Virus record (IMG/VR): IMGVR_UViG_3300033141_002573
Location: 1-42,725 of that record
DNA length: 42,725 nucleotides
Strand: one strand, 5' to 3'
Origin: a virus
The translations under genes and the position numbers were made by a program. The notes under the pieces are model-generated. The model worked only from the letters and a program-made list of their open reading frames with translations, was not told the DNA's origin and ran no database searches. Shown piece by piece: positions 3,299 to 39,001 of the stretch. Positions within the stretch are counted from its first letter, which is position 1, and each line of letters opens with the position of its first letter.

Positions 3299-3538
3299 GT
3301 GGATGTAACACTCGAACAACAGTTGAGGCGGGATGCGATAGACTTTCTCGAAAGTGAACATCTCAATAATGTTGCTAAGATAGAACTGGAACGCAGGCTA
3401 AATGCTCGTGCGGAACGTGCTGCCAAACTAGAGGCTGCGCTTGCAGAGGCTGAGGCCCGACTTCGACACTACATGGCTGTGGCTAAGACCAAAGAGTCTC
3501 CTGAGTGCGGTTCCGGTAAGGAGAGTATTGTAAGATGA
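3299..3538 (+). CDS. Small coiled-coil protein, paralogue of the N-terminus of 4770-5966
   Basis: TLEQQL..D..DFL.S.HL..V.K.EL.RRL.ARA.RAAKLEA is shared with the ORF at 4770; ATGA overlap with the nucleotidyltransferase. Confidence 0.65.
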   Translation: MDVTLEQQLRRDAIDFLESEHLNNVAKIELERRLNARAERAAKLEAALAEAEARLRHYMAVAKTKESPECGSGKESIVR

Positions 3539-4323
3539 ATGGAATTGCTCAGTTGCGCGTTGAGGCGAAGGAGCAGTTTGGAAAAGAGCATGGTCTTCAG
3601 TTTTTGTCTTTTCGAGGAAGTGTTGCACACGGTACATACATTCCAAGTGACGACCCTTCTTCGGTTGATGATGTTGACCTTATTGGTTGGGTAACTGCCC
3701 CTTTGGATTGCTACTTCGGTCTTCGTGAATACGGTAGCCGAGGCACCAGAGAACTCAAGCACGGGCGGTGGGATGTTGTTCTGTATGAGGCAAGAAAACT
3801 CGTGAGCCTTTTGGCAAAAGGGAACCCAAATGTACTCTGTACTTTGTTTATGCCATCAGAGTTTGTGTTGGTACACAATTGGGCGCATGAACTGCTTGTG
3901 GTGAATCGTGACCTCTTTCTTACCCGTGAACTGTATACGTCGTTCATTGGTTATGCGTATAGCCAACTCAAACGAATGGAGCACCACGCATCTAAGGGGT
4001 ATATGGGTGCAAAGCGAAAGATTCTTTTGGAGAAACATGGATACGATACTAAGAATGCGTCGCATCTGATACGACTTCTGCGGATGGGTATTGAGTTGTT
4101 ACAAACCGGTAAGCTTAACGTGTGTAGGACAGGGCTCGATGCCGACGAGCTTATTGCTATCAAGCGGGGGGAGTGGACACTTAAACGTGTAAAGAAAGAG
4201 GCTGACAGGTTGTTTGAAGAATGCAATATGGCTTACGAACGTTCGCAGTTGCCTGACAGTATTGACAAAGAGGCCATCAATGAACTTTGCATTGATGTTT
4301 TAGAGACAGGAATATGGGGCTAA
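3535..4323 (+). CDS. Pol-beta-superfamily nucleotidyltransferase (YcgL/RlaP/T4 NrdC.11-like)
   Basis: GSVAHGT...SVDDVDL motif, LLAKGNPNVL, YDTKNASHLIRLLRMG and LIAIKRGEW are typical of this family. Confidence 0.88.
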   Translation: MNGIAQLRVEAKEQFGKEHGLQFLSFRGSVAHGTYIPSDDPSSVDDVDLIGWVTAPLDCYFGLREYGSRGTRELKHGRWDVVLYEARKLVSLLAKGNPNVLCTLFMPSEFVLVHNWAHELLVVNRDLFLTRELYTSFIGYAYSQLKRMEHHASKGYMGAKRKILLEKHGYDTKNASHLIRLLRMGIELLQTGKLNVCRTGLDADELIAIKRGEWTLKRVKKEADRLFEECNMAYERSQLPDSIDKEAINELCIDVLETGIWG

Positions 4324-4740: not shown

Positions 4741-4769
4741 GGGTGGTCGGGATTAAGGAGGGAAATAAC

Positions 4770-5966
4770 ATGGGCACGACGCTTGAGCAGCAGTTGCAGC
4801 AGGATGGGTTAGACTTTCTAGGGAGTAATCATCTCGATGACGTAGGTAAGCGAGAATTGGGGCGGAGGTTGAAGGCTCGCGCAAAGCGTGCCGCGAAATT
4901 GGAGGCCGAACTCGTTAGGGTTCGCGAGTGGGCGGAGCAAGGAGAGAGATTGCGGGAGGCCGTGACCGACCATGGCTTCTACAGTAGTTCCAACTGGCGG
5001 ACGCTGATGGTGTGGGCCAACAGGGAGGGCCGTGGGATACTCGCGAATCGCTGCGCCGCAATTGCCAATGCGCTCGAAGTGGAGGAGCAGGAGGCTCCCG
5101 CAGAGTCAGACCAGGGTACTGAGAACACGGAGGAAAGCGCAATGAGCGAAGGGGGGGAAGTGACTATGCAAGATGATCTCAAGCGAGGATCGGAGGTCGC
5201 ATCGGAGGAGGCTAGGCAAGAGTTGCTCAGCATGATTCGCCGCCACCTCGCGGAGGTCTGCTATAACGCGAATGCCCTTGCCGACGAGCTAGAGTATGCT
5301 CAAAGTGAACTCGTGGCAGAGTTGCTGGGGCGCGAGCCAAATAGAATTAGTGGGGATAGCGCCGTGAAGCAGTTCAAGCTGATAAGGTCGCGGCTTGGCC
5401 GCGCCCAGAGGAGAATCGCCGAGATGCGGAATCGCTGCGCGGCCATTGCGGACGCGCTCGAAGCGCAGGAGGCCGAGACTGGCACGGAAACCGAACCGCC
5501 AGAGGGGGAGGGCGACTCGACCGCCGACCTGGACGACGTGGCGAACGAGATTATGCTCTCGGATATGGAGCGGCGTGGCGTTATACCCCCCCTGGAGGTC
5601 CCATCCGAGCAGGAAGCCGATGCCAAGCAACCCTGCCCGCACGAGCAGGCAGAGTGGGACGATAGCCGGGCCGTATGGGTGTACGAGAGCCGGTCTCACG
5701 AGATAGAGTATGCGAGCGAGCCGAGTACACCTTGCCACGTCTGCGGCAAGCCGCTGCCGCCGAAGCCTGTTGAGTTTCTCACCTGGGAGGAGTGCTGGGA
5801 ACGGCTGCCCGCGTCAGTTTGTATTGACCGTCACCCTGATGGCTCATATTGGGCATACGGTCGGGATGATGATGACTGGTCAACCTATCAGGCAACCGGA
5901 CAGTCGGTACTCGCTGCCCTCCGCGCCCTCGTGGCCGTTATGGAGGAGGCTAAGCATGGCGACTAA
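4770..5966 (+). CDS. Mosaic multi-module hypothetical protein with an internal repeat and a Zn-finger-like CPHE...CHVCG
   Basis: AAGGAGGG RBS before ATG 4770; NRCAAIA(N/D)ALE occurs twice; in-frame internal RBS+ATG at 5142 and 5166. Confidence 0.7.
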   Translation: MGTTLEQQLQQDGLDFLGSNHLDDVGKRELGRRLKARAKRAAKLEAELVRVREWAEQGERLREAVTDHGFYSSSNWRTLMVWANREGRGILANRCAAIANALEVEEQEAPAESDQGTENTEESAMSEGGEVTMQDDLKRGSEVASEEARQELLSMIRRHLAEVCYNANALADELEYAQSELVAELLGREPNRISGDSAVKQFKLIRSRLGRAQRRIAEMRNRCAAIADALEAQEAETGTETEPPEGEGDSTADLDDVANEIMLSDMERRGVIPPLEVPSEQEADAKQPCPHEQAEWDDSRAVWVYESRSHEIEYASEPSTPCHVCGKPLPPKPVEFLTWEECWERLPASVCIDRHPDGSYWAYGRDDDDWSTYQATGQSVLAALRALVAVMEEAKHGD

Positions 5967-6171
5967 CCCCAGCACAAAGGTCCGCAACCTGCAAGCCGAG
6001 ATAAAGTCGGCTTTGGGGGAGGCGGAAGGCACACGCGAGAGGGAGTTGGAAATCTCGCATGACGTGCTGGAAGATTGGATCTGGCGACTCGAAAGCATTC
6101 GCTGGGATTGTCTTCACCTGGAGAACGACGGCACGGTTCCTGAGAATTGGGAGGAGTTTAGCCAATGTTGA
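5956..6171 (+). CDS. Hypothetical protein
   Basis: GGAGGAGG RBS, ATG 5956 (MATNPSTK...), overlaps its neighbours. Confidence 0.6.
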   Translation: MATNPSTKVRNLQAEIKSALGEAEGTRERELEISHDVLEDWIWRLESIRWDCLHLENDGTVPENWEEFSQC

Positions 6172-6407
6172 TCCTAAGGATGGTAGCAACTAGCGGCAGC
6201 ATCGTATGTCCGTATCCGTACTTCGCCGTATCCGATAAGAATACATCATTCTGGCCGCTCTTGGAACTCAACGGGGGGGAGCAGCACCTCCGCATTCACA
6301 TCGCACCGTATCTTGTAGATGCGCTATACGCCGAGCTTGGGCAAATTCGTACGCGGCTAGAGGCTGCTGCGGAGAAGATGGCCGAGGAGGGACGTAAGAA
6401 TGGATAG
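6165..6407 (+). CDS. Hypothetical protein
   Basis: GGAGGAG RBS, tiling. Confidence 0.55.
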   Translation: MLILRMVATSGSIVCPYPYFAVSDKNTSFWPLLELNGGEQHLRIHIAPYLVDALYAELGQIRTRLEAAAEKMAEEGRKNG

Positions 6408-6612
6408 GTTTGAAATGGAGAAACTCCTGGCCGGAATGAGCGATACGGAAATACATGAGTTACGGTATCTTCTCGGATTGGAAACGCACAGGCGCTGGGT
6501 CATAAGAAATGCTTTTGATGTTACCGACTCTGGGACATTGCGCCCCATACCTAGACAGGTCAGAACCAAGTTGGAGGACATCGCAGAAGAGGATAGTACA
6601 AATGGAACGTAA
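6400..6612 (+). CDS. Hypothetical protein
   Basis: GAGGAGGG RBS, tiling. Confidence 0.55.
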   Translation: MDRFEMEKLLAGMSDTEIHELRYLLGLETHRRWVIRNAFDVTDSGTLRPIPRQVRTKLEDIAEEDSTNGT

Positions 6613-6763
6613 CTATTTAGGATGTCGGAAGGATAATGTCGTGCAGATGCCGCCCAAGCGGACAATGCGCGTGTGGGTGCGTGTACGGTACGTGAGGAAG
6701 GCGAAGCCGTTAGTTGTAGAACCTATAACCGAGGAGGACGATGATAGCAATGAAGAGGCTTGA
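6602..6763 (+). CDS. Small hypothetical protein
   Basis: ATG 6602 after AGAGGA, in the frame of ORF 6509-6763. Confidence 0.4.
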   Translation: MERNYLGCRKDNVVQMPPKRTMRVWVRVRYVRKAKPLVVEPITEEDDDSNEEA

Positions 6764-7037
6764 ACCGCAGGACGCGCCGTTGGGTATCGTTGCAATGAAG
6801 CCTGAGGGTCCGTGGCATGTGCTCTACGCCGAAGACGCCTCTACGCCTGCTGGTGATACATCTCACCATGATGGTGAACGCTGGTCATTCTGGGGCGACA
6901 TATTGTGCCGAGGGGACGATGCACCCTATCTCAACTTTCATTACCTACGCATCCCGGCCGACCTGCCGCCGGGAGCGCGATTGTGTAAGAAGTGTGAGAT
7001 GGTACTTAGAAGGAGGAAGAATACAAGTGGAAACTAG
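6741..7037 (+). CDS. His/Cys3 zinc-finger-like protein, paralogue 1 of 3
   Basis: DAPLGIVAMKPEGPWHV...W.FW...C...LRIPADLPPGARLCKKCE. Confidence 0.75.
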   Translation: MIAMKRLEPQDAPLGIVAMKPEGPWHVLYAEDASTPAGDTSHHDGERWSFWGDILCRGDDAPYLNFHYLRIPADLPPGARLCKKCEMVLRRRKNTSGN

Positions 7038-7323
7038 CAGGACACTCGATGCACCGTTGGGCATCGTAGCAATGCAACCTGAGGGTCCGTGGCATGTTGT
7101 AGCTATTCATGAGGAAAAGGCACTTCCTGCTGGTGAGGTCTGGCATGGCAATGGGATTGCCTGGACGTTTTGGGCGGACACTCTTTGCATAAACACCGGT
7201 ATGGACAGGGAGTGGGTCTTCTGGCCTTATTTTAGGTTCCCAGCCGACCTACCACCGGGAGCACGATTGTGTAAGAGGTGTGAGATGCTACTTAGAAAGG
7301 GGAAGCGAAAGAATGAAGACTGA
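7027..7323 (+). CDS. His/Cys3 zinc-finger-like protein, paralogue 2 of 3
   Basis: GTG 7027 after AGGAGG; DAPLGIVAMQPEGPWHV...FRFPADLPPGARLCKRCE. Confidence 0.75.
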   Translation: METSRTLDAPLGIVAMQPEGPWHVVAIHEEKALPAGEVWHGNGIAWTFWADTLCINTGMDREWVFWPYFRFPADLPPGARLCKRCEMLLRKGKRKNED

Positions 7324-7585
7324 CAAGAAACTCGATGCGCCGTTAGGTATAGTAGCAATGAAGCCAGGGGGGCCGTGGCATGTCGTTGAGGCTATCTCGC
7401 CCTATATGACAGCAGCGGAGGGCCATAAGTATAGCGGCGAATGGGTTTTCTGGGCTACCGCACGGTGTGGTCCGTATGGGGGCTTCAGGGGTTGGTGTTA
7501 CCTGCGCATCCCCGCAGACCTGCCGCCGGGGGCGCGGCTGTGCAAAAAGTGTGAGAAGGCGCTGAAAAAATGGGAGGAGGGATAG
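7313..7585 (+). CDS. His/Cys3 zinc-finger-like protein, paralogue 3 of 3
   Basis: ATG 7313; DAPLGIVAMKPGGPWHV...LRIPADLPPGARLCKKCE. Confidence 0.75.
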   Translation: MKTDKKLDAPLGIVAMKPGGPWHVVEAISPYMTAAEGHKYSGEWVFWATARCGPYGGFRGWCYLRIPADLPPGARLCKKCEKALKKWEEG

Positions 7586-7588
7586 CAA

Positions 7589-7798
7589 ATGGGTATGCCA
7601 ATCTACACGGGTAGTGTACTGGATGTTGACCCAGACGCGGTGTACCAGGAGATTGCTCAGGTGCGTATAGCATTTGAGCACCTCGTACCGGCAGATGTGC
7701 TGGCAGAGGGCGACACCGTAGCCGTGATTCCGCTGGGGGACGGCAGGTACGAGGCATTGCTGGCGCTGGCCGCACAGGAGGATGAGGCAGATGACTGA
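7589..7798 (+). CDS. Hypothetical acidic protein
   Basis: GGAGGAGGG RBS, tiling. Confidence 0.6.
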   Translation: MGMPIYTGSVLDVDPDAVYQEIAQVRIAFEHLVPADVLAEGDTVAVIPLGDGRYEALLALAAQEDEADD

Positions 7799-8322: not shown

Positions 8323-8520
8323 ATGCCTGCGGACGGATGCGCCGTAAGCAGTCGGCCTGATGCGGAGTTCGTATGCAGGTTTTGCGGGCATAAGCTGGTG
8401 CCTGATATGGCAGGTAGCCATTACCCAGGCCTGTACTTTTACGTTTGCCTCAGGTGCCAGAACTGGGTGCGCGACGGAATGCACATGCGTGACGAGGAAA
8501 AGGCGAACGATGAAAATTAA
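8323..8520 (+). CDS. Small Zn-ribbon protein
   Basis: GGAGGT RBS; CRFC...CLRC. Confidence 0.6.
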   Translation: MPADGCAVSSRPDAEFVCRFCGHKLVPDMAGSHYPGLYFYVCLRCQNWVRDGMHMRDEEKANDEN

Positions 8521-8540: not shown

Positions 8541-8626
8541 GGAGAGGTATGCAAGTGGCAAAGCAAGCGGTCTGTAAAACCGCTGGCCTGAGGTCTTCGC
8601 AGGTTCGAGTCCTGCCCTCTCCACCA
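8541..8626 (+). tRNA. trnY: tRNA-Tyr(GTA)
   Basis: Acceptor stem GGAGAGG/CCTCTCC + A73 + encoded CCA; D arm; anticodon stem GCGGT/ACCGC with loop CTGTAAA (GTA at 8574-8576); long variable arm; T arm GCAGG-TTCGAGT-CCTGC; bacterial-type G1-C72. Confidence 0.96.
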
Positions 8627-8645: not shown

Positions 8646-8960
8646 ATGAGCGATGAGCGGATATTCTGCGGGGGGATACTACCCGATGGGAGCACGTGTC
8701 ACGCTACTGAGTTCCGCGAACGTCTTCCCCAAGGGAGCACCAAGCGGCCTCAACAACGGCGTATGGGCTGGTACTACATCGAGGGCAACTGTTGGGTAGA
8801 TTACTGCCCCAAGTGTGGAACGAAGCTCGGTGTCATAGATGGGTGGGAACCTATTACGGATGCGATGGTGCCGAAGAATGAGTCCGATCAACTAAAAGCT
8901 GCATTGGCGCAAATGGTTATGGACTACTTGGAGGGCTTACTCAATGGAGGAGAGCGATAG
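8646..8960 (+). CDS. Zn-ribbon protein
   Basis: GGAGG RBS; FCGG...C...YCPKCG. Confidence 0.65.
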   Translation: MSDERIFCGGILPDGSTCHATEFRERLPQGSTKRPQQRRMGWYYIEGNCWVDYCPKCGTKLGVIDGWEPITDAMVPKNESDQLKAALAQMVMDYLEGLLNGGER

Positions 8961-8962
8961 GG

Positions 8963-9439
8963 ATGCCTAAGAAGGTTGTTGTACCCGGTACGTGGGGAAA
9001 ATGTACCTGTCAGGGCTGCGCCTGGAATATCGGCGACGAGGTGTGGCAGTGTTGTTATCTCAGCAAACCTATATCTGAAACAGGTTTTAGTTGGTTGTAT
9101 TGCCCTTGGTGCGGCGACCTCTGCGGCGAGGGCGGTCACATTCGTCCGAACCTGAGACGGTTGGTAGAGGCAGACGTGCTAGAGTTTGCAGACGAACTGC
9201 TATCCCACGAGCTTGACTGGCGGACGGAGGTAGATTTCCGCGACTACCTGGCCCGCTTGCGGGGTTTGCTGGCGGTCGGGTGTCCAACGTGTGGCGGTAC
9301 GGGGTACATTCAGCAGGAGGGCATGAAGGACTTTGAGTCCGGCAGCGTGATAGACGACATCTTCACGCAGTATGAGTTGCCTTGCCCGGACTGCCAGCCG
9401 GATGGAAGGGAGGCCGAAGATAATGAGGGACGTGGTTGA
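8963..9439 (+). CDS. Cys-rich protein with a Zn-ribbon and DnaJ-like CxxCxGxG
   Basis: CTC..C, YCPWCG, CPTCGGTG...CPDC. Confidence 0.65.
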   Translation: MPKKVVVPGTWGKCTCQGCAWNIGDEVWQCCYLSKPISETGFSWLYCPWCGDLCGEGGHIRPNLRRLVEADVLEFADELLSHELDWRTEVDFRDYLARLRGLLAVGCPTCGGTGYIQQEGMKDFESGSVIDDIFTQYELPCPDCQPDGREAEDNEGRG

Positions 9440-12268: not shown

Positions 12269-12598
12269 ATGAATAAGGTGGTATTTCGTGTAAGGGGTAC
12301 GTCCTCTTGCGCCGACGTACTTCCCCATGTTTGTGTTGGTCAGGATGTGTGCCTCGAACCCTCAGGCACTGAGGATCTTCCCGATGCAGTAGAGGTGTGG
12401 GTGAGAATAAAGGGCCAGATGGTCCGCGTTGGGTACGTTCCAGCCAATCTATGCGCACATGTACGGGAACTACTCGATAACCGTTGCGGCGCTGGGATAT
12501 GGAACACACGTGTGGTGTCTGTAGATTCTGGACTCCATGTCGCCTACGAGTATAATGATGCCTATGGAAACAGTAGTGAATACAGAGGCTACAGGTAA
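12269..12598 (+). CDS. HIRAN-domain protein
   Basis: FRVRGTS...GQDVCLEP...DAVEV...VGYVPAN matches the HIRAN pattern. Confidence 0.7.
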   Translation: MNKVVFRVRGTSSCADVLPHVCVGQDVCLEPSGTEDLPDAVEVWVRIKGQMVRVGYVPANLCAHVRELLDNRCGAGIWNTRVVSVDSGLHVAYEYNDAYGNSSEYRGYR

Positions 12599-15134
12599 GC
12601 CAGACGCCAACCCTTTTCCTATTTCACGGGATGAAAGTGTGTGCAAGGATTGTCCATGGTACACACCAGAATCTGTGATGATAAGCCACAGAGGCCCCAT
12701 CGACGCCGAGGTGGTTGTTATCGGCCAATGCCCTGGGGCAGAAGAGGCCCATAGAGGTGTGCCGTTTGTAGGCCCATCTGGCAGGCTTCTTGTCCAAGCC
12801 TTGGGGGATGCTGGTTTTGATACTAACAAGATACTGTTCACTAACGCTGTGTGGTGCGCAGGACAGGAGAAGCCTCCAAAGGAGACCCTTGATAGATGTA
12901 AAACCTATGTTCAGCGTCTTCTTAAGCTGTCAAAAAGAAGGCTTCTCATCCTTCTTGGAAATGAAGCGCATTACGCCATACATGGGGGCAGTGTCTCTGG
13001 TGTTCTTCAGAACCAGGGTAGGGTAGAGCAGGTTGGTGATGCTCTGTCTGTGTGGTTGCTTCATCCCGCTTACATCCTGCGGAATCTTGCTGCCAAAGGC
13101 AGATGGGTATCCGAGCTTCAACGCGCCTTTGCGCTGATAGAAGGGAAACTTGTCCAACCGGAGTTCGAGTTAGAAATAGTTGGTCCTGGCTTCATGGACG
13201 CTTCTGTGCTCACCGATGAGCATTGGATTAGAAACGCAGATACTATAGCAATGGATATTGAAACAACCGGACTTGATTGGACAAAGGATAAGATACTGGG
13301 GGTTGGGCTGTCTAGTGGGAAAAGGGCTATCTACCTGGTATTTAGACATTCGCTTCATGCTTTTCCTGGTCTTGAGTCGCTCGGTACACTTGGCCTCAAG
13401 GACAACCCTGACCTCCCTCAGATAGTGGAATGGCTTCGTTCCACTATTGGCCCCGATAGAAGACCTGGTGTGTCCATAGTAGGCCACAATTTGAAGTTCG
13501 ACAATAAGTACCTTTATCATGAGGTCGGCTTTACCGCACAGCCTACGGCCATCGATACCATGGTGCTTCACCACCTTGTTGATGAAAACGAACCGCATGG
13601 TCTTAAGGCCTTGGCTCGGACGTGGCTGATGGTTGATGATTGGGACCGTGACACTAGAGAGGTTATGATAAGCAAGACAGGTCACCTGGGTCATCTTCCC
13701 ATTGCAGATGTTGCCAATTACTGTGCATCTGACTGTGTAGCAACGGAGGCGTTGTCTGACCTCTTCAGGCAACGTGCGATTGATGAGGGCTACTGGTCTC
13801 TCTACAAGGACCTTGTTGGTCCACTATCGGATGAGTTGCTTTGGATTGAGGTACGTGGGCTTCTGGTTGACATAGATGCCTACAATGAACTCGACAGGCG
13901 GCTGAGTGAGCATGTAACACGTCTCAGGGAACGGGTGCGGGATATTAGCGGGTATGGGACTGGAACTACCTGTCCTTGGCGTAAAGACAAGCAGGATGGG
14001 ATGAATCCAGATAGCAATAGCCAGGACCTTCCGGCGCTTCTCTTTAGCCATGAGTACGGTTGGGGTATTGAACCCCCATTCAGCACAGAGACAGGGCGTC
14101 CGTCCGTCGATGCAAAAGCTCTTGCAGCCATTCTGGAAGGGAACATACCAACTAAGGCAAAGAGGTTTATCAACGCACTTTTGGACTACAAGCATGTGCG
14201 TACATGGTACACCACGTTTGTTAAGGGGTTGCGTGATCACATACACGAGGATGGGACTGTCCACACTACCTATATGTTTGATCCTGTTAAACACGAACAG
14301 GCACCCCGTACCGGGCGGCTATGTAGTAGCCGCCCGAACGTTCAGAACGTGCCGCCTGAAATCAGACCTGTCTACAAGGCACGTGACGGTTATGTCTTCG
14401 TGGAGTCCGACTATTCCCAACTTGAGGCAAGGGTATGGGCGCATCTATCTGGCGACCCACTGTTGATCAAGATATTCGAACGAGCAAATGTTGACCCCGA
14501 GTTCGACTTCCATAGGATAATTGCTAGTGTCGCATTCGGTGTTCCACCTGACGAGGTTACCAAGGACCAGAGAAATGCTGCTAAGGTGATACTCTTTGGA
14601 GGAGTAATGTACGGTGGTGGTGAGTACATCGTCTCAGAACAACTTCATAAGCCAGTTTCCGAGGTAGAGGATCTGATGCGGCGTTTGTTCTCGTACTTCC
14701 CCACAGGTCAGGCATGGCTTCACAGACAGGTAATGGAGGCCCACAGAAATGGCTTCGTTAGAAGTACAATAGGAAGACGGAGGAGGCTGCCGGACATTCA
14801 AAGCTCAGACCGACGTATCCGCAGTGGGGCTGAGCGGCAGGCCAGGAACAGTGTCATACAAGGACTGGCATCTGACATCAACAACATGTCTCTCATTAGA
14901 ATAAACCGATGGCTTAGAGGTGACGGTTCTAATTTCGATGCCAAAGCGGTTAATCTTGTCCATGACAGCCTTCTCTACGAGGTGAGAGACGACCAGGTTG
15001 ATGATTACCTACCGAACCACGAGGCGCTTATGACAGTTGAGCCGTTTGAGGGATTTGGGGTTCCTCTTCAGGTTAAGTCTAAGGTTTCAACACACTGGGG
15101 AGGCAAACTAGACATTGATGCCATCTGCGATTAA
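12537..15134 (+). CDS. polA: Family A DNA polymerase with N-terminal family-4 uracil-DNA glycosylase and a 3'-5' exonuclease domain (start uncertain)
   Basis: UDG4: CKDC, IGQCPG..E...G.PFVGPSG, TNAVWC, HPAYILR. Exo: DIETTG, HNLKFD, YCASD. Pol: TGRLCSSRPNVQN, DYSQLEAR, RNAAKVILFG, NSVIQG, VHDSL. Confidence 0.96.
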   Translation: MSPTSIMMPMETVVNTEATGKPDANPFPISRDESVCKDCPWYTPESVMISHRGPIDAEVVVIGQCPGAEEAHRGVPFVGPSGRLLVQALGDAGFDTNKILFTNAVWCAGQEKPPKETLDRCKTYVQRLLKLSKRRLLILLGNEAHYAIHGGSVSGVLQNQGRVEQVGDALSVWLLHPAYILRNLAAKGRWVSELQRAFALIEGKLVQPEFELEIVGPGFMDASVLTDEHWIRNADTIAMDIETTGLDWTKDKILGVGLSSGKRAIYLVFRHSLHAFPGLESLGTLGLKDNPDLPQIVEWLRSTIGPDRRPGVSIVGHNLKFDNKYLYHEVGFTAQPTAIDTMVLHHLVDENEPHGLKALARTWLMVDDWDRDTREVMISKTGHLGHLPIADVANYCASDCVATEALSDLFRQRAIDEGYWSLYKDLVGPLSDELLWIEVRGLLVDIDAYNELDRRLSEHVTRLRERVRDISGYGTGTTCPWRKDKQDGMNPDSNSQDLPALLFSHEYGWGIEPPFSTETGRPSVDAKALAAILEGNIPTKAKRFINALLDYKHVRTWYTTFVKGLRDHIHEDGTVHTTYMFDPVKHEQAPRTGRLCSSRPNVQNVPPEIRPVYKARDGYVFVESDYSQLEARVWAHLSGDPLLIKIFERANVDPEFDFHRIIASVAFGVPPDEVTKDQRNAAKVILFGGVMYGGGEYIVSEQLHKPVSEVEDLMRRLFSYFPTGQAWLHRQVMEAHRNGFVRSTIGRRRRLPDIQSSDRRIRSGAERQARNSVIQGLASDINNMSLIRINRWLRGDGSNFDAKAVNLVHDSLLYEVRDDQVDDYLPNHEALMTVEPFEGFGVPLQVKSKVSTHWGGKLDIDAICD

Positions 15135-25235: not shown

Positions 25236-26984
25236 TTAATCCTGAAGGTCTTGTCCTACATCATAGGTGTCTGCGTCTGGGACAGCGATGTCCCTGTAGA
25301 CAGTGCGCCCTCCTTGTGGTTTACCTGTCCACGTAGCCTTTACTCGGACCTTCGCTCCTCGGACAATATCTACGTACACGTATCCGTTGGCATCTGTTTC
25401 CCTGGCAGCTACACCGTCGCCAAAAACCACATTGGTGTCACTTGGTCGTGATAGCACATTTACAACATCAAGACTTCCATCCCCAACACCGAGACTCTGG
25501 CCGCCAGCAATTTCCTTGAGGAAAGCGTACACTCGACAGAGAGATGGATCATCTGGCGCGGAAGGCCCAGATGTTCTCACGAGGGTAATAATGTTCGTGC
25601 TATTCCCACTAACCGTGATCTCTGTGTTGCTGCCCTCATAATTCACTGTGCTTGGTGTCACCAGGTGATAGGTGCCGCTATCGAGGTTGAATGTTACACT
25701 CCCACTACTATCAGTACTCCGTGTTGCAATAATTGCACTTTCATCGGAGTCCTTACAGGTGACCTTTAGATTTGCTACTGTGTTCCCTTCTTCATCCTTA
25801 AAGATGCGCGTGACGGTGTAACTACCACTACCAAATATATCGGCCTGTCTTAACGCAGGGTCGATAGCGTACCCAGACCACGCATTGCTGTCGCCGTTGT
25901 CCACCGCTTCTCCGTCAGAACCGCCGCTTGAACAGAATGCAAACGTGTTCTGGTCGGCACCGTTTACTATCTCAAAACCAGCGGTCGTATTGCCTATACT
26001 CGTACAGTTGAGTAACTGATTGAAATCGGCACCTGAGTTGCTTAAGTAAAAACCCCTCACAGCAGCCCCCGCTCCAACCGCCTTGCACCTGTCGATACGG
26101 TTGTAAGGACCCAATACGTCAAAACCAGTTTCTGTGTGTTCGATGCTCCTGGAGTTCTTAATCCAGCCCGCATTCCCATCGATACTGAAGCCTACGGAGC
26201 ACTGACAGGCGCAGCACCCATCCACAATAACGTAGTGTGCCCCAGCCCGAACATCCAGCCCGACACTTGGGCTACTTGGGTGAAATACAGCCCCCTTTAT
26301 CTCACAGGACGATGCGCTAATTGTAAAACAAGCAGACGCACCAGTACCGTCGATGATGGTTCCTGGTTCGCAGATAACTATTACCCCTGAGGTGTCCAAA
26401 TCAAGGTTACTTTCACTGTAGGTTCCTGGGGCTACAACAACATGATCACCCGAAACAGCCGACGATAATGCCTTTGCAATACTAGCAAATGGTACATCAG
26501 GCGCATCCCCATCGTTGCTGTCATCGCCTGTAGCTTTATTAACGTAGTATGTGGTGAAGAATGGGTCCATGTTTACCTGGCGCAACCTCCTACCAGCAGA
26601 CGTGGGGATGTTGTGAGTAGCCCCCGTAAGGCGTTCATCCCACACCCCGTCTGCTATTTCTTCCGCCAGAGTACCACCCACGTTGAGCTTGTCGAGGTAA
26701 CCAGCACGCGCTGGCGTGTAGTCTGCCTCCGTATAGAAGACCTGCACCTGGTCTTCAAGGTTGTCCGAAGCAATCTTCACCGCACCGTAATCACAGTCAG
26801 CCTCCGTTGGCGTTAGGTCCAGGGTAACAAGACCACTGCCTACAACTGTGGGCGTATTGGTGGCCCCAGCAAAGGCTCCACCATCTTTGCTTATCGTTGC
26901 TACAGGATTCGTAGGGTTTGTGGGTACACCACCGTTGTAGCAGACGATTTCGATGGTCTGGGCAATACCTTTTGGGAAGACCAC
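25236..26984 (-). CDS. Virion/tail-spike-like protein with a right-handed beta-helix (pectin-lyase-like) and C-terminal Ig-like domains
   Basis: ISKDGGAF and IADGVWDE phage structural motifs; YYVNKATGDDSNDG..P..PFASI.KA..G..V.V.PGTY.E beta-helix cap; Asn/Cys-ladder repeats; TDSSGSVTFNLDSGTY. Confidence 0.8.
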   Translation of the reverse strand: MVFPKGIAQTIEIVCYNGGVPTNPTNPVATISKDGGAFAGATNTPTVVGSGLVTLDLTPTEADCDYGAVKIASDNLEDQVQVFYTEADYTPARAGYLDKLNVGGTLAEEIADGVWDERLTGATHNIPTSAGRRLRQVNMDPFFTTYYVNKATGDDSNDGDAPDVPFASIAKALSSAVSGDHVVVAPGTYSESNLDLDTSGVIVICEPGTIIDGTGASACFTISASSCEIKGAVFHPSSPSVGLDVRAGAHYVIVDGCCACQCSVGFSIDGNAGWIKNSRSIEHTETGFDVLGPYNRIDRCKAVGAGAAVRGFYLSNSGADFNQLLNCTSIGNTTAGFEIVNGADQNTFAFCSSGGSDGEAVDNGDSNAWSGYAIDPALRQADIFGSGSYTVTRIFKDEEGNTVANLKVTCKDSDESAIIATRSTDSSGSVTFNLDSGTYHLVTPSTVNYEGSNTEITVSGNSTNIITLVRTSGPSAPDDPSLCRVYAFLKEIAGGQSLGVGDGSLDVVNVLSRPSDTNVVFGDGVAARETDANGYVYVDIVRGAKVRVKATWTGKPQGGRTVYRDIAVPDADTYDVGQDLQD

Positions 26985-27041
26985 ATCACATCACTCCCAT
27001 TGCCACAAGTATGAGACCACGCCACATTCCTATTGTCGTAT

Positions 27042-27404
27042 TTATGTAGCAGACGGTGTGGCAGATGGTACAACGGTTACCTTTCCTCCGATGGGGAAAT
27101 CATCCAGTCTGTTTCCATCCCCATCCTCTGCCAGTTTCACGTGCATGTCCCACACGTAGTCCCCCTCATCCAAATCAACATCACCAAGTCGGATTCTAAC
27201 CTTGTTGTTGTCAGGTGTGTCAACAATTGTAAATGTTGCACTGACTACGGTGCTGCCCCATGCAGGTCGGATCTGCGCCTTAATGTCAGCACCTGTTAGG
27301 TCAACTGGGTTTCCCTCTGAGTCCACCAGTGTGGATGTTGTGTAGTCGATGTCCCCACCAATACCCACAACGAAGTTAACGATACGACCCACATGCTCAG
27401 ACAC
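27042..27404 (-). CDS. Phage baseplate/adaptor Ig-like domain protein (BppU-N-like)
   Basis: GNPVDLTGADIKAQIR...YVWDM...GKVTV; GGAGG RBS before GTG 27404. Confidence 0.7.
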   Translation of the reverse strand: MSEHVGRIVNFVVGIGGDIDYTTSTLVDSEGNPVDLTGADIKAQIRPAWGSTVVSATFTIVDTPDNNKVRIRLGDVDLDEGDYVWDMHVKLAEDGDGNRLDDFPIGGKVTVVPSATPSAT

Positions 27405-28629
27405 CGATCCTCCTCCTTTCTCCGTCACCCGATGCAGTTATTCCTGTACGGGTTTGACCCGTACAGATGATTCTATTCTGTGTTCCATCCCCTGTAAGGT
27501 GTAGTGGTGGTATGGTGGCGTGCAACTCCTCTAAGTTCCCCACCGTCCAGAAGCCGTCGTTGTCGGACTGGCAGTTGAACATAGTGGAAATCCTGTCGGC
27601 TGACCACGCCACCTTCCATTGATGGGTCTCGTCTTGATGCCCGTAAAGGCCAGCAACATTTTTCCACCGTCCATGACCTGCCGGAGACATATGGTAGCTG
27701 GTGCTCGGAGTAACATCACCAGTTGGGGACAACGACCTACCGAGCGGCACACCGTCAACGTATATCAGTACCTCGGTGCCGTCGTACACGAACCCAAACT
27801 GGTGCCAAAGACCGTCACCCAGGTCGGCATAGTACGCGTCCGTCGTGAAGTCGCCCGCCGTAGTTGCCAGATGCACCCCGACTCCATAAGGGTCGTCTCT
27901 GCCACTCACCCACATGTCCCAACCCCCGTGGCCTCCTTCACGCCAGTTGCCAAACAGCCATTGCCAGCCATTGTGGTCGTCAACACGTTGGTCAACTCTG
28001 GCCCACGTAAATGCGCTCAGCGCAGCACTCATTGCGCCATAGTCCAAAGGCCATCGGCTACCGTAGATGTAGTCTCCGTCGTCCCTATTACGCTCCACTC
28101 CACAGCCTACCTGGCCTGTTTGGTCAACCTTGTCTATGTAGTCATTGCCGTGGTCGTGGAGTGCGCACCAGTCCTTGTAGACCTGTGGTGTGCCCGTTCC
28201 TGGGGCACTCTCCTCCAGCGGCCAGTAACCAATACATCCGTCGCTTATCGGCACCACGCCTTCTCGGTTCTCAAACGGCCCACCAGTGCATCCCCTATAG
28301 AGTCGGTAGGTAGTGGGCGCACTGGCCGACAGCGCGGGCAGGCCCAGGCCCAGCACGAGCTTGCGGCTCCCAGAAGTCTGCGAGAATTGCTTCAGTCCCC
28401 ATGCCACCTCGGTGCTGTCGTCGGCTGTGAATACCCGCAGGTCGCTCAGGTCTGCTGCCAGCCCGTTAATGAAGCTCTGCGCTCCGCCCTCCCAGTTGGT
28501 CCCCAGGGCTTCGTCAATCACCAGGTCGGCGGCGAACACGGACGAGCCGTCGTCCGGCATATCCGCAGGGACTTTCTCTGGATTACTGTGGATAGTTAGG
28601 CGGTGTGTAGCACCAGATGGTTCAGCCAA
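27397..28629 (-). CDS. DUF2341-like + LamG/concanavalin-A-like domain virion protein
   Basis: SDLRVF..D, GYWPLEE, GQVG, WHQFGFVYDG..V.IYVDG, DE..W..A.S.D.I...NCQ; TTG start with GGGGAGGT RBS. Confidence 0.82.
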   Translation of the reverse strand: MAEPSGATHRLTIHSNPEKVPADMPDDGSSVFAADLVIDEALGTNWEGGAQSFINGLAADLSDLRVFTADDSTEVAWGLKQFSQTSGSRKLVLGLGLPALSASAPTTYRLYRGCTGGPFENREGVVPISDGCIGYWPLEESAPGTGTPQVYKDWCALHDHGNDYIDKVDQTGQVGCGVERNRDDGDYIYGSRWPLDYGAMSAALSAFTWARVDQRVDDHNGWQWLFGNWREGGHGGWDMWVSGRDDPYGVGVHLATTAGDFTTDAYYADLGDGLWHQFGFVYDGTEVLIYVDGVPLGRSLSPTGDVTPSTSYHMSPAGHGRWKNVAGLYGHQDETHQWKVAWSADRISTMFNCQSDNDGFWTVGNLEELHATIPPLHLTGDGTQNRIICTGQTRTGITASGDGERRRIGV

Positions 28630-28663
28630 GATATACCTCCCCTATCCCATGTATCGTGAAAAG

Positions 28664-28692
28664 AGTATATCACACTTTTCAAGCATAGTCAA
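28664..28692 (-). promoter_or_regulatory. Sigma70-type promoter (extended -10) overlapped by an inverted repeat
   Basis: Minus strand TTGACT, 17-nt spacer, TGaTATACT; imperfect palindrome TGAAAAGAGT-ATATC-ACACTTTTCA (28657-28681) over the -10 box. Confidence 0.8.
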
Positions 28693-28714
28693 CAAGTGTC
28701 GCCACAGCAACGTC

Positions 28715-30454
28715 TTAGGGTTCTGCTCCCGTTTTGGTCATCACGTAGTACGGTTCAACAAGGCCACGGCTGGCGTGTTTCGCACCCATGAAGTGTTCAG
28801 CACAGTTAGGATCAATCGTGCGCATAACAGCGCGTACATCTCTGAGAGGCTCCAGTCTGACAATTTCCCCGTGCGGACCACGGTTATGTATGCGTTCACC
28901 TTCAGCTACCGCTCGCTGGTGAACAACAAGCCAGCGCCTTGTCACGCGCCATAGTTCCTGCAAGGCTGGTTCACTCTCAGGAAGATGATGCAGCACGTTC
29001 GTACAGAAAACCAAGTCGAAACTCCCATTGTCAAATGGTAAACGTGCCCCATCCATGCTATCGAGCGGCAGGCGAGCTCGATAAATTGTAGCACCTGGCG
29101 CATACTCACGTGCAAGCCTAACCATCTCCTGGGAGTTGTCACAGCCTGTGTAGACCATCCCCCGTACTTCCATAAAGTAACGATAGTAGTTGGCGTTGCC
29201 GCAGCCTACGTCGAGTACACTTTGCCCCGGTTCACCAGGTAACCAGTCCACGTTTCTCCATTGCTCTATCCGTGTTTCATGTCGGCTCCATGGCTTGTTT
29301 GCTATGTGTTCCGCCACGGACTTACCAGCATAGTCGCCGAAGGTACAGGTCGTATCCCAGATTTGCCCGTCCGCCCTTAGTTGTGCATCATCGTCATTGT
29401 GCGTCACGCCCAACTCTGCTACCTGATCGTTAATCTCACTATGATCTCCCATCTTTTCAGCCCTCCCGGCTAAACGTCTATAGGTATTAGCGTACGTCGC
29501 GGCCATCCTGTCATTGTCCCACGTAGCGATTGCACGGTCTGCTATCTGCCGCCGCTTACCTCTGAGATTGTTGTCTGTGAGTGCCCTCTGCACTGCATCA
29601 GCCACCGCTTCCGGGTTTGGTGCGGTCATCACGCCTAGTTTCCCGTTGGCTGCCAACTGTGGCCCGTAGTGGCTATTGGGGACCACAGGAATTAGGCCCG
29701 CAGTTAGTGCCTCAGCCACACCAGTTCCCGAACCCTCAGGCCAGGGGGCACAAATCACGTCCCCCTCAGCAATAAGTGCCATGGCCTTCGGATGGGGCAC
29801 TGTACCGAGTGCCTCGGCGATGCCAATCAGTCCACGGCGGTGAAGTTCTTTGTGTATCTGGATGTGGCCTGAGGGGGAGCCGCCGATAATGCGCAGTGAG
29901 AACTTCTCCCCCCGCTTGTGCAGTATTTCCATTGCCTCCAGAAACAGAAGAGGGTTACGGTCAGGGTCGAGCCTACCAAGCCAGACCACTAACCCCTCCC
30001 GCCTCTCCTCCGCCCATGGCACAGGGTCAACACCGAACAGGTTTATAGGTGCGTCGCCGGGGACCGCAGGTGACACACGGAAGGTTACGTCTGCCCATTC
30101 ACTCCCATTTGCTTCTATCCCTTCGAGACTGCCTGACTTTGTGACCGAAGGTATACCCAACTCCTTTGCAACCTTTGCTGCGTACTTGGTGTTTGCCTGC
30201 ACTACGTCAGGTTCCAAGGTAATCATCGCTGCCCGCAGTCCGGCAATGTGTTGCTCAATAGGCTTCCCCTTGGGAACCTGGACGACCTCCCCCCATTGTT
30301 CCATCTCCGCGAGACCACTCGGTTTCGCATTAATGTAGGTGCAGCAACACTCAAACTCCTCAGGTGGCAACCTCCGAATGACCGCCAGGGCATTGACCAT
30401 CCCTCCACCCCACCAGAGGTTCGGCACATTGAAAAGTATCTTGATTCGGTTCAA
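28715..30454 (-). CDS. GT4 glycosyltransferase + class I SAM methyltransferase fusion
   Basis: WWGGG, LGRLD, EGSGTGVAEA.. (E-x7-E); VLDVGCG, GCDNSQEMV, LPFDNGSFDLV, VLHHL, ELWRV. Confidence 0.9.
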   Translation of the reverse strand: MNRIKILFNVPNLWWGGGMVNALAVIRRLPPEEFECCCTYINAKPSGLAEMEQWGEVVQVPKGKPIEQHIAGLRAAMITLEPDVVQANTKYAAKVAKELGIPSVTKSGSLEGIEANGSEWADVTFRVSPAVPGDAPINLFGVDPVPWAEERREGLVVWLGRLDPDRNPLLFLEAMEILHKRGEKFSLRIIGGSPSGHIQIHKELHRRGLIGIAEALGTVPHPKAMALIAEGDVICAPWPEGSGTGVAEALTAGLIPVVPNSHYGPQLAANGKLGVMTAPNPEAVADAVQRALTDNNLRGKRRQIADRAIATWDNDRMAATYANTYRRLAGRAEKMGDHSEINDQVAELGVTHNDDDAQLRADGQIWDTTCTFGDYAGKSVAEHIANKPWSRHETRIEQWRNVDWLPGEPGQSVLDVGCGNANYYRYFMEVRGMVYTGCDNSQEMVRLAREYAPGATIYRARLPLDSMDGARLPFDNGSFDLVFCTNVLHHLPESEPALQELWRVTRRWLVVHQRAVAEGERIHNRGPHGEIVRLEPLRDVRAVMRTIDPNCAEHFMGAKHASRGLVEPYYVMTKTGAEP

Positions 30455-32730
30455 CGTGTAAGCTCCCTATAGACCTTAGCGTACTCGGCGCTGAAACGTT
30501 TTGCATCGTACCGTTGTCCCGCCCACTCCTTCATCGTGGTGCGTTTACCACGCAGTTCGGTGTTGTCGAGCGCCTGTGAGAGGCCATCTGCAATCTTCTC
30601 AGGTTCACTCCCAACGGTGACACCGTACTCCCCCACCAGTCCCGGTCCGAAGCCACCTGTTGAGACAACAGGTATAGCTCCCCCACGCATCCCCTCGGCG
30701 ACACCGAGGCCAAATCCCTCCGGCCACGGCGCGGTTACCACATCAGCCTCAGCTACCAGTTCAAGCGCCTTGGTGTGGGGCACAAGTCCGCTTAGTTCGA
30801 CTCGCTCCTTAAGACCATCCACCCAGGGAAACTGCTTGGGGTCGAAGCTGCCATCCATGTTGGCACCGATGATGCGTACTCTGAAGTCCTGCCGTCGCCT
30901 CCAGAGTACATTAAGGGCGTTGAAGAAGACTTGTGGGTTCCTGTCGTGGTCGAGGCGTCCAAGGTAGGTGATAAGGTGGTCCACTCGGTCCCGAACAGGA
31001 GGCGCATCCACACCATTGAGTATCATAGGTTGGTCTCCCGGAATAGCGGGGGAAACACGGAACACACAATCAGCGAACTCAGCGCCATTTGCCTTCGCAC
31101 CGAGCATACTGTGGCCTGTTGTGACACAGAGGATACCCATATCGTGGGCCACACAGGCCATCTCAACCGTATTCGCCTGGACCACATCCGGCTTGGTCTC
31201 TGACAGCACCTCACGAATTGCTTCAGGCAATTCCTCCTCTGTATTTGGCGTAATCCGGTGTACAACGCCATACTCACGGAGGGCTTCATCAGCGCCTTGC
31301 CTTACGCGACGTATTAAGAAATGTACGTCGAATTCGTTGCGCGGTAGGTACTTCACCAGGTAATTCGTCCAGTTGTGTAAACCTCCCCACCAGGCATTTG
31401 GAACGAAGAAGAGGATTCGAGGCACATTCCTTTTGGGCGAAGGGGCCTTCACACGCCGAATGCCCGCTTTTGTCCATTTGCGAGCAAAGGCCGCATCCGC
31501 CCGGCGCATCCCGTCGGTGTCGCCTACTCGCCGCGTGAGACCCTGCGGCATATCACCATGTAGTGGGCCTCCCAGGTGTCGCAACTGTACAGTGCCGTCA
31601 ATCCAGAGTGTGTATCCTGCCTCTTTAATCCGCCAGAGGAGGTCGCGATCACTCTGACCCTGCAAACTGCGGAACGGTTCGGGGTGTAGTTGACCAGGTT
31701 CCTCCTCGGCATTGCGTACAGCCTCCATGCGGAAGAGGTTGTTGCTACCCGTAATGTCGAATGGCTTCGCGGGTTGGCCGCGCAAGCTCGGCCAGTATAT
31801 GTCTGTCCAAGGTGCAATTGCACCGATGCGGGCATCCGTGTGCATCCGTTGCACAAGCGGTCCTAGCCAACCAGGCGGGGTAAGCATATCGTTGTCTATC
31901 CACGCAAAGTATTTGCTTGTTGTGTGGTCATACGCTAACTGCCGCCCACCAGGGCAGCCAAGGTTCTTGTCGGACTCTAGTACCAGGCAACGGTCGTCAC
32001 CAAGCATCTGCCGCACCGAATAGAAAAACTTCCCAACCGGCTCTGTGCTGCCGTTGTCCACCAAGATCAGCCTGTATGGTGCCCAAGTATTGGCAATAAC
32101 CTGTGCCACGCAGGAACGGGTGACCTCGAGCTCGTTGTGAGCAAGTATAACAATGTCTGTAACAGGCCACATGACCTTATGGTAGCGCACCAGGTAGTTC
32201 TCTACTGCTTGGTTCCCATCCGCTTCCATGTGGATACACGGGAGGCCTGCCCTTGCAGCGAACCGTGCGCAGCGATCACTGTCCGTATGGACAATGTGAG
32301 GCCGGAAGTCGAGAACAACCCTGAGGAATGCCCACCATTCATCATCTTGAGGGAGAAATCTAACTCCTCCATGTTTACACATTTCTGTAGCGTCAGTTGC
32401 TGGATTGCCTTCCTCAACAATGAAGTACCACTCAACAGTATTGGAGGGCATACCTTTGGCTAGATAACTCGCAAATGTTTCTTGGTCTCCTCCACGGGCC
32501 ACACGTGTGCAAAATAGAACACGAATAGGTTCACCATTAGCAGGGGGATAAGCGGGGCCTGGGTAACCATACCACGTGTCAGGGGGTGTGGCCGGACGGG
32601 CATTCCGAGGACTCTGAGGTGGCTCCTGGGGCACAATGCTGATTAACCTCCGTTTCCCCTCCAGCCTCTCGGTTTTGATTACCCTACCTCGCTCGTCCAC
32701 TACCTCGTGAACAACAGCCATGGAAACCAC
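30451..32730 (-). CDS. Multidomain glycosyltransferase (partial GT-B N-domain + GT2 + GT4)
   Basis: GT2: IVILAHN, LVDNGST, NLG, WIDND, DRDLLWR. GT4: LGRLD, EGFGLGVAEG. Confidence 0.9.
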   Translation of the reverse strand: MVSMAVVHEVVDERGRVIKTERLEGKRRLISIVPQEPPQSPRNARPATPPDTWYGYPGPAYPPANGEPIRVLFCTRVARGGDQETFASYLAKGMPSNTVEWYFIVEEGNPATDATEMCKHGGVRFLPQDDEWWAFLRVVLDFRPHIVHTDSDRCARFAARAGLPCIHMEADGNQAVENYLVRYHKVMWPVTDIVILAHNELEVTRSCVAQVIANTWAPYRLILVDNGSTEPVGKFFYSVRQMLGDDRCLVLESDKNLGCPGGRQLAYDHTTSKYFAWIDNDMLTPPGWLGPLVQRMHTDARIGAIAPWTDIYWPSLRGQPAKPFDITGSNNLFRMEAVRNAEEEPGQLHPEPFRSLQGQSDRDLLWRIKEAGYTLWIDGTVQLRHLGGPLHGDMPQGLTRRVGDTDGMRRADAAFARKWTKAGIRRVKAPSPKRNVPRILFFVPNAWWGGLHNWTNYLVKYLPRNEFDVHFLIRRVRQGADEALREYGVVHRITPNTEEELPEAIREVLSETKPDVVQANTVEMACVAHDMGILCVTTGHSMLGAKANGAEFADCVFRVSPAIPGDQPMILNGVDAPPVRDRVDHLITYLGRLDHDRNPQVFFNALNVLWRRRQDFRVRIIGANMDGSFDPKQFPWVDGLKERVELSGLVPHTKALELVAEADVVTAPWPEGFGLGVAEGMRGGAIPVVSTGGFGPGLVGEYGVTVGSEPEKIADGLSQALDNTELRGKRTTMKEWAGQRYDAKRFSAEYAKVYRELTR

Positions 32731-32736
32731 ACCCTC

Positions 32737-33615
32737 CTACATACGCGGTGATCGAACATAGGATGAAGCAAACTGTAAGGCATCACTTACAGCCTTACGG
32801 CTGTAACCGCAAGTAGCCCATGCCTTTGCCAGTCCAACAAGAAATGCGTCACCTGCTCCAATAACCTGTGGCTTATCGACTCTGGGGGGTTCCACATGCC
32901 ACATACCGTCCATATCGGAGGCCTCAATATGCTTGTCTGCATTTGTTACAACAGCCAGTGTAACATTGAGAGACGAACGTATCTCTGATGCCAAGGACTT
33001 TCCATCTAGGCCGAGCACATTTGCTATTCCCGCAGCTTCAGACCAATTACACACAAGCGCATCTACCCCCGAAAACATACCTACTATCTTTGACGGTTTT
33101 GTGTTAACTATTACAGGACAGTCAACTTGGTGTAACGTTTTCATCAGCGGCTCAATTGTGTGTTCACTGACTACACCCTTATTGTAGTCGCTAACCACGA
33201 AAATGTCAAGGTCACCAGAAATCATTAATGCTGGTGACAACACGTTGTTACCCAAAAACGTTTCCTCCACATCAGTTCTTGAAACACAGTCAGTTTCCGA
33301 CGTGAAAGACCTAAACTTCAATGTTGTAACAGAAAGTTCACGAGAAAGGAAATATGAGATATGCTCGCGTCTGCACACATCCTCTATTAGCGACCCCCAC
33401 ACATCATCCTTTCCAATAGCACCCCACAACGTCACATCGAAACCTTCCCGTGCTGCAAGGGCTGCAACGTTACCAGCACCACCAAGCCGGTATGTCAGAT
33501 TGTTACCCCGCAGAATAAGTATCTCGTCATTCTCTGGGGAATAACGCTCGAACCTTCCATACACTGATACGTCAAGCATGACATCTCCGACTACACCCAT
33601 TCTAACCTTATCCAT
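32737..33615 (-). CDS. hldA: PfkB-family heptose-7-phosphate kinase (HldE/RfaE domain I-like)
   Basis: VGDVMLD...R.SPE, LGGAGNVA, TTLKFR, R.D.E, SDYNKGVV, GAGDAF; GGAGAG RBS before ATG 33615. Confidence 0.85.
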   Translation of the reverse strand: MDKVRMGVVGDVMLDVSVYGRFERYSPENDEILILRGNNLTYRLGGAGNVAALAAREGFDVTLWGAIGKDDVWGSLIEDVCRREHISYFLSRELSVTTLKFRSFTSETDCVSRTDVEETFLGNNVLSPALMISGDLDIFVVSDYNKGVVSEHTIEPLMKTLHQVDCPVIVNTKPSKIVGMFSGVDALVCNWSEAAGIANVLGLDGKSLASEIRSSLNVTLAVVTNADKHIEASDMDGMWHVEPPRVDKPQVIGAGDAFLVGLAKAWATCGYSRKAVSDALQFASSYVRSPRM

Positions 33616-37746: not shown

Positions 37747-37769
37747 TGCCTCCTTGCTGGTTTGGTTCA

Positions 37770-38747: not shown

Positions 38748-39001
38748 TATGAATCCTCCGCGTACACGTCATCCCCACCGTAAGTGGAGATGCCATAGAG
38801 TGCGTAATTCGTCTGAACAGGAAGCCCATCGTCGCCCAAACTATAGGTACTCCAAAACCACGGCAGGGACTTGGTGAGAGCCGCCCGTGTAAGGAATACG
38901 TGCCCAACCGTGGCTTGTGATTCGCGCCCAGGTCTTCCAATGGCATCAATATGGAACTGTCTTGCCCTGTGCAAATTACGGCGCTCGATGTCCCTGTCCA
39001 T
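38747..39001 (-). CDS. Small hypothetical tail-module protein
   Basis: TAATG overlaps on both sides; YG...YGG.DVY motif. Confidence 0.6.
   Translation of the reverse strand: MDRDIERRNLHRARQFHIDAIGRPGRESQATVGHVFLTRAALTKSLPWFWSTYSLGDDGLPVQTNYALYGISTYGGDDVYAEDS

Follow-up and report, generated by a model that had tools for sequence, protein, structure and literature searches.

A tandem triplet of orphan phage genes with conserved ends and divergent centers, one of which differs between sister phages

The window that we analyzed, a stretch of 42,725 nucleotides, covers the initial 42.7 kb of an IMG/VR phage record of 108,503 bp that has direct terminal repeats and is rated complete; the phage itself is uncultured. 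Three genes, here called A, B, and C, follow one another on the + strand 6.7 kb from the left end (6750-7585), and are listed along with the ribosome-binding words that connect them:

6750-7037, + strand: copy A, 95 aa; an alternative ATG at 6741 would give 98 aa
7011-7016, + strand: AGGAGG, ribosome-binding word for B, within the tail of A
7027-7323, + strand: copy B, 98 aa, GTG start; the sister-contig gene call P0004 has the same start
near 7300, + strand: GGGGAAG-type ribosome-binding word for C, within the tail of B
7313-7585, + strand: copy C, 90 aa, ATG start
GGGAGGAGGGA, + strand: ribosome-binding word for the downstream gene (start 7589), within the tail of C

For copy A, orthologs on other contigs begin at the position equivalent to 6750. 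The A/B and B/C junctions each overlap by exactly 11 nt, and the Shine-Dalgarno-like word for the next gene sits within the basic tail of the gene upstream. An 11-nt overlap of this form (start codon, 5 nt, stop codon) is seen three times in 720 bp, at 6602-6612, 7027-7037, and 7313-7323, one of them outside the triplet, which suggests a favored coupling geometry in the operon. No sigma-70-like promoter or terminator was found between the three genes. A, B, and C are translationally coupled, and are thus likely produced together in approximately equal amounts. Furthermore, the junction unit is itself duplicated: 149 nt at 6952-7100 match 7238-7386 at 80% identity, a repeat that fits head-to-tail duplication of a unit of ~286 bp.

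The triplet lies within an unbroken run of packed or overlapping small genes on the + strand (~4.3-11.2 kb), which is flanked by a DNA methylase and an RlaP-like nucleotidyltransferase and, on the opposite side, by a replication module that includes PolA with a UDG-like domain, SbcCD, and a radical SAM enzyme. The main features of these surroundings are as follows:

1259-2611: N6/N4 DNA methylase, upstream of the small-gene run
3535-4323: RlaP-like (Pol-beta superfamily) nucleotidyltransferase, upstream of the small-gene run
4743-5966: orphan ORF of 407 aa with an internal repeat and a Cys/His-rich C terminus, no Pfam match
8323-8520, 8646-8960, and 8963-9439: Cys-rich ORFs with CxxC pairs (65, 104, and 158 aa)
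8541-8626: tRNA-Tyr (GTA), amid small orphan genes
12537-15134: family A DNA polymerase with an N-terminal uracil-DNA-glycosylase-superfamily domain fused to exonuclease and polymerase

The immediate neighbors of the triplet are all orphans with no family assignment, several of them Cys-rich mini-proteins. Zinc-ribbon matches of the three Cys-rich ORFs downstream are sub-threshold (E ~0.02), and these ORFs are unrelated to the triplet family. The best phage match of the DNA polymerase is 29% identical, and the phage is without a cultured relative. Elsewhere in the window, the 407-aa orphan contains two acidic segments, each following a near-identical NRCAAIA.ALE stretch; the tRNA-Tyr is 75-82% identical to the tRNA-Tyr of large Xanthomonas, Ralstonia, and Bacillus phages; and a minus-strand arm (25236-42698) carries a beta-helix tail-fiber-like protein together with glycosyltransferase, methyltransferase, PfkB-kinase, and capsule-synthesis genes.

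Aligned pairwise, A, B, and C are ~53% identical in protein sequence and share 39 invariant columns, most of them toward the two ends, that fall into three blocks: an N-terminal DAPLGIVA followed by GPWH, a short internal W.FW...LC, and a C-terminal PADLPPGARLC..CE. Each copy can accordingly be divided into framework and center:

6771-6820 (A), 7048-7097 (B), and 7334-7383 (C), + strand: N-terminal framework block (DAPLGIVA..P.GPWH), DNA identity 86-88%
6941-7011 (A), 7227-7297 (B), and 7498-7568 (C), + strand: C-terminal framework block (Y.R.PADLPPGARLC..CE plus helix start), DNA identity 82-83%
6821-6940, + strand: variable center of A (loop 1, WxFW..LC, loop 2)
7098-7226, + strand: variable center of B
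7384-7497, + strand: variable center of C, 22% identical in the sister contig, flanks conserved
6816-6818 (His) and 6906-6908, 6984-6986, and 6993-6995 (Cys), + strand: candidate zinc ligand codons of copy A

When a profile of the three copies was run against the 108.5-kb genome, it matched only these three places, with E values of 1e-48 to 1e-56. Since this is far beyond chance, we regard A, B, and C as paralogs of one orphan family, and the original prediction of three overlapping genes with shared ends is borne out. So is its view that conserved codons differ mainly at synonymous sites. In Nei-Gojobori comparisons of the A/B/C codon alignment, framework codons gave a pS of 0.58-0.85 and a pN of 0.09-0.12, and center codons gave a pN of 0.57-0.66. 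The framework is under strong purifying selection, and the center is the part that differs, between the paralogs and, in copy C, also between sister phages. A framework pN of ~0.1 at saturated synonymous sites indicates that the triplication is old and that none of the three copies has decayed or escaped selection since the duplication. For the loops, dN/dS is not estimable because dS is saturated.

Center identity between the paralogs is ~18-29%. As predicted, the loops differ in sequence, but their difference in length had been overstated (loop 1 has 18-20 aa and loop 2 has 7-10 aa across A, B, and C). The same is true of their supposed richness in aromatic residues, which is a mild rise (W, Y, F, or H at 3 of the 18-20 positions of loop 1). 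The internal WxFW...C motif occurs in A, B, and C alike; the wider family keeps just the first W and the C nearly invariant. Loop 1 varies more in that wider family, from almost nothing in P0014 to 37 aa in P0009. The isoelectric points are 6.9 (A), 6.3 (B), and 9.1 (C), with C', P0009, and P0010 above 9 and with A, B, and P0006 at 5.3-6.9, so the copies are without a common electrostatic signature.

The clearest evidence on how these genes change comes from sister contigs, which we compared at the protein level. A neighboring gene (6165-6404) is 89% identical on contigs of 5269, 5624, and 2888 bp, and the gene downstream of the triplet (7589-7795) is 90% identical on the 5269-bp contig. On that same contig, A is 98% identical with an unchanged center (38/38), and B is 99% identical, also with an unchanged center (41/41). 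Copy C is 59% identical overall; its ends are conserved at 85% (46/54), whereas its center falls to 22% (8/37), as low as between paralogs. The contrast between the center of C and those of the other copies is strong (Fisher p = 2e-20). Given that the center of C is at 22% while B is at 99% and the downstream gene at 90%, the center is the unit that changes. That the centers of A and B are frozen while that of C has changed argues against unconstrained linkers and against general hypermutation. We read the alignments as evidence that the center of copy C was locally replaced, or diverged in a burst, between close phages, and as an argument against general hypervariability. The framework blocks are 82-88% identical in DNA and contain exact matches as long as ~20 nt, and exchange of a central segment by recombination within these conserved blocks would fit the case of copy C.

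The variation in loops that the original prediction proposed to look for among relatives is therefore found in copy C and is missing from A and B, and its description of antibody-like hypervariable loops was too strong. Besides the fully identical centers of A and B, there are neither spare cassettes nor a reverse transcriptase. Specifically, PF00078 was not found in the complete 108.5-kb genome at E values up to 1, and a DNA search of that genome with 6741-7585 returned the region itself and two 17-nt chance matches, with no full or partial copy. A more distant comparison is offered by P0006, on the 5624-bp contig. Its head (22/25) and its center (15/38, 39%) are nearest A, and its tail is slightly nearer C and C' (21-23/32, against 19/32). 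An array collapsed by recombination between A and C would look like this, as would a protein that resembles the unduplicated ancestor.

The candidate ligand set His-Cys-CxxC, which had been proposed from the three copies, extends to the wider family. Every intact member keeps the GPWH His, the internal Cys, and the CxxC, even P0010 and P0014, which are the most distant, and this invariance fits a zinc site. One natural variant of copy A, P0013, is without four residues (CRGD) that include the internal Cys (the equivalent of 6906-6917 in the window); it may represent a true allele, a copy in decay, or a misassembly. Structure prediction, which had been suggested as a check, succeeded in part. 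With 8 sequences, the AlphaFold2 model of copy C reached a pLDDT of 72.9 and a pTM of 0.62 and has six short strands and a C-terminal helix, whose first turn follows immediately on the first Cys of the CxxC; the loops are modeled with lower confidence. For copy A (7 sequences), the pLDDT was 41 and the model was unusable, and ESM Atlas models were also poor (pLDDT 0.52-0.55). Foldseek searches with the copy C model found nothing at E < 0.1 in the PDB or BFVD. PDB entry 3rms_A, which is 24% identical over 62 aligned residues, was rejected as a candidate, with a Z of 2.6; it also comes up weakly with the DUF3039 profile (E 0.62).

The family is very sparsely represented in sequence databases. 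Two word-indexed searches (5.8 billion clusters) and one full HMMER pass (1.84 billion representatives) yielded ~10 distinct relatives among ~15 billion proteins, all of them metagenomic. These include:

P0005, P0004, and P0007: the triplet on the 5269-bp JGI contig
P0013: variant of copy A on the 2888-bp JGI contig
P0006: sole family member shown on the 5624-bp contig
P0008, P0009, and P0010: further relatives, P0010 being distant (E 8.5e-7)
P0014: marginal relative (E 0.056)

No fused or longer form of the family appeared in a length-unrestricted search. A, B, and C had no match in Pfam (hmmscan to E 10), PHROG, NCBIfam, or PADLOC. With respect to anti-defense functions, the absence from PADLOC and PHROG is a weak negative, since those libraries hold few anti-defense proteins. 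Further afield, tblastn with P0002 against 50,697 phage records gave no match, scans of IMG/VR (protein profile, exact 29-mer, and P0014) found no relatives, the family was absent from 185,579 species genomes, and we found no description of it in the literature. Several candidates were rejected along the way. The tblastn matches of P0014 in phage records lie on the antisense strand of capsid protease genes and are due to chance, as is its match among the species genomes (L005), which falls inside a membrane-protein gene of an Agromyces MAG. P0011, a protein of 700 aa that the search of representatives also returned, is repetitive and eukaryote-like, and this match is spurious.

A scan of metagenomes had among the matches listed a 1128-bp contig (L004), which carries a single family copy (gene 478-810) with unrelated ORFs on either side. 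On this contig, a 57-nt direct repeat (341-397 and 811-867, 77% identical) brackets the family gene. P0006, P0008, P0010, and P0014 are likewise each the sole family match of their contigs. Because each member outside the phage lineage is the only family match on its contig, the triplication is lineage-specific, and because these other members are single-copy, recognition of three targets is not a trait of the family. Taken together, the searches indicate that the family is new and extremely rare.

Comparison with known proteins provides leads but no assignment. In the ESM Atlas, the named structural neighbor closest to copies B and C was DUF3039 (TM 0.49-0.57). Like the triplet proteins, it is small and has ligands in the order His...Cys...CxxC, and alignments with DUF3039 sequences taken from actinobacterial genomes show the same P-x3-P-x5-C-x2-C spacing before the C-terminal helix. 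In hhalign, the E value was 0.033 for a single comparison, with a probability of 1.5%, over 32 columns that pair the Cys and the CxxC and leave the His outside. Unlike the triplet proteins, DUF3039 is shorter between the ligands, has no DAPLGIVA/GPWH block, and is cellular, not viral. Its Pfam model did not match A, B, or C at E values up to 10, and the same model works on actinobacterial genomes. We therefore treat this marginal similarity as a lead and not as membership. DUF3039 (PF11238) is an actinobacterial signature protein whose function is not known (SCO2947/ML1016; PMC4255298), and it is listed as such in both PMC4255298 and PMC13118837, so it allows no functional transfer. A second lead, zf-HC3 (PF16827), came from an Atlas cluster (cosine 0.79-0.80) in which 23% of members carry that family. 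No match to it was obtained in the A, B, and C proteins or in the six-frame genome at E values up to 10, and it was not found in 81 actinobacterial genomes or controls.

Sequence comparison with solved structures yielded one weak resemblance (E ~0.04), between the C-terminal motif and the second zinc-ribbon knuckle of ribosomal protein eL40, where P..GA..C.KC also follows a beta strand. In the triplet proteins, however, the positions of the first eL40 CxxC are Tyr and Ile, and the other candidate ligands are ~25 and ~55 residues upstream. With one CxxC and with Tyr and Ile at the first-knuckle positions, these proteins are not classical C4 ribbons. At the level of fold, SH3-like barrels of the Royal family (PWWP, chromo-barrel, Tudor, and MBT) fill nearly all top structural rows for the copy C model; domains of this class are small beta-barrels followed by a helix. 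The best of these has a Z of 4.4 and an rmsd of 4.0 over 77 residues, below the level that the aligner calls common for unrelated folds; Foldseek E values are at least 1.2, and identities are 5-13%. We know of no zinc site in SH3-like Royal family domains.

Among phages, small zinc-binding accessory or regulatory proteins include Ogr of P2, Delta of P4, and Ea8.5 of lambda. They are 70-100 aa long, have one Cys/His zinc site, and are encoded among nonessential early or accessory genes. In P4 Delta, an Ogr-like unit has been duplicated in tandem. Ogr and Delta have C4 sites and Delta's units are fused, unlike the separate genes of the triplet. None of the three phage proteins has a sequence match here (Pfam), and the triplet has no known link to RNA polymerase. 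Finally, the targets of diversity-generating retroelements and other fixed-scaffold binders resemble the triplet in combining a conserved framework with a variable exposed segment. Retroelement targets differ in that the triplet is accompanied by no reverse transcriptase, template repeat, or adenine-specific pattern.

The explanation that we tentatively prefer is that A, B, and C are small zinc-stabilized accessory proteins, produced together, whose diverged central surfaces bind different partners. According to this proposal, they would be cytoplasmic paralogs of ~90 aa belonging to a new and very rare phage family, each folding into a compact beta-rich domain closed by the C-terminal helix. 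The fold would be stabilized by one zinc ion, with the GPWH His, the internal Cys, and the CxxC that opens the helix as its ligands. The conserved ends would build the core, leaving 35-40 residues in the middle, made up of a beta-hairpin loop and a second, shorter loop, as an exposed surface specific to each copy. Through coupling of the genes, the three proteins would be made together in about equal amounts, and each may have its own binding partner among host or phage macromolecules and act as an accessory factor of the takeover or counter-defense type. We infer such an anti-defense or host-takeover role from the position of the genes among small orphan genes alone.

Other explanations account for parts of the same evidence. 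It is rather unlikely, for example, that the proteins are small zinc-dependent regulators that bind DNA or RNA, with each copy recognizing a different site. The eL40-like C-terminal motif points in that direction, as do the basic tails, the pI values above 9 of C, C', P0009, and P0010, the nucleic-acid binders among the weak SH3-like structural neighbors, and the phage zinc-finger precedents Ogr and Delta. Yet A, B, and P0006 are neutral to acidic, there is no helix-turn-helix and no match to a DNA- or RNA-binding family, the eL40 and fold matches are below significance, and the tails owe part of their basic character to the Shine-Dalgarno words that are encoded there for the next gene. A different use of the shared ends would be as the interface of one hetero-oligomer in which A, B, and C are subunits and coupling ensures equal amounts. 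The 11-nt overlap with coupled starts is kept at both junctions, all three copies have been retained across saturating synonymous divergence, and the triplet is also kept in the sister contig. We consider this assembly unlikely, however, as a single copy is found in other phages (L004 and the contigs of P0006, P0008, P0010, and P0014), and tight overlaps such as that at 6602/6612 are the rule for genes throughout the stretch.

The centers may also have no particular role. If they were weakly constrained linkers and the copies were redundant, serving dosage, then the pattern would be that of any small metal-binding domain. A center pN near saturation would be expected from such linkers, and the extremes of loop 1 in P0014 and P0009, the dips in confidence in the copy C model, and the existence of the 4-aa deletion variant are all compatible with them. 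What makes this reading doubtful is that the centers of A and B are 100% conserved in the sister contig while flanking genes are ~10% different. Nor are the centers free-running, since those of A and P0006 share more (39%) than any pair of paralogs (18-29%). In addition, redundant copies seldom all stay intact once synonymous sites saturate. At the other extreme, active diversification, by a diversity-generating retroelement or by silent-cassette conversion, could rewrite the loops. Just the fixed-frame, variable-center layout and the sister difference in copy C speak for such a system. It is highly improbable, given that the complete genome contains no reverse transcriptase, no further DNA copy of the region, and only three profile matches, that the differences are not limited to particular bases, and that the A and B centers of the sister contig match those of the window exactly.

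A more far-reaching reading is that the family is a natural modular binder. In it, the conserved ends of a zinc-clamped framework would double as recombination handles, and phages that infect the same cell could trade the central cassette that sets specificity, as seems to have occurred in copy C. Such trading would let the phage redirect a small inhibitor against changing host proteins, defense systems among them. We regard this reading as distinctly unlikely.

New inhibitors of host machinery and of defense systems come mainly from small orphan proteins of phages, and tandem paralogs of small Cys-rich ORFans are common in large phages. The triplet is familiar in kind, being a set of tandem paralogs of small Cys/His ORFans among phage accessory genes; the localized replacement in copy C is the feature worth pursuing. 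Here, a scaffold of ~90 aa, probably with one zinc ion, exists in three natural versions within one genome, and the apparent natural center swap between sister phages makes specificity directly testable with chimeras. Should the center not set the target, then the triplet would be one more lineage-specific duplication of an ORFan. If the center does set the target, then the scaffold would be of interest both for the arms race between phages and their hosts and as a minimal binder framework.
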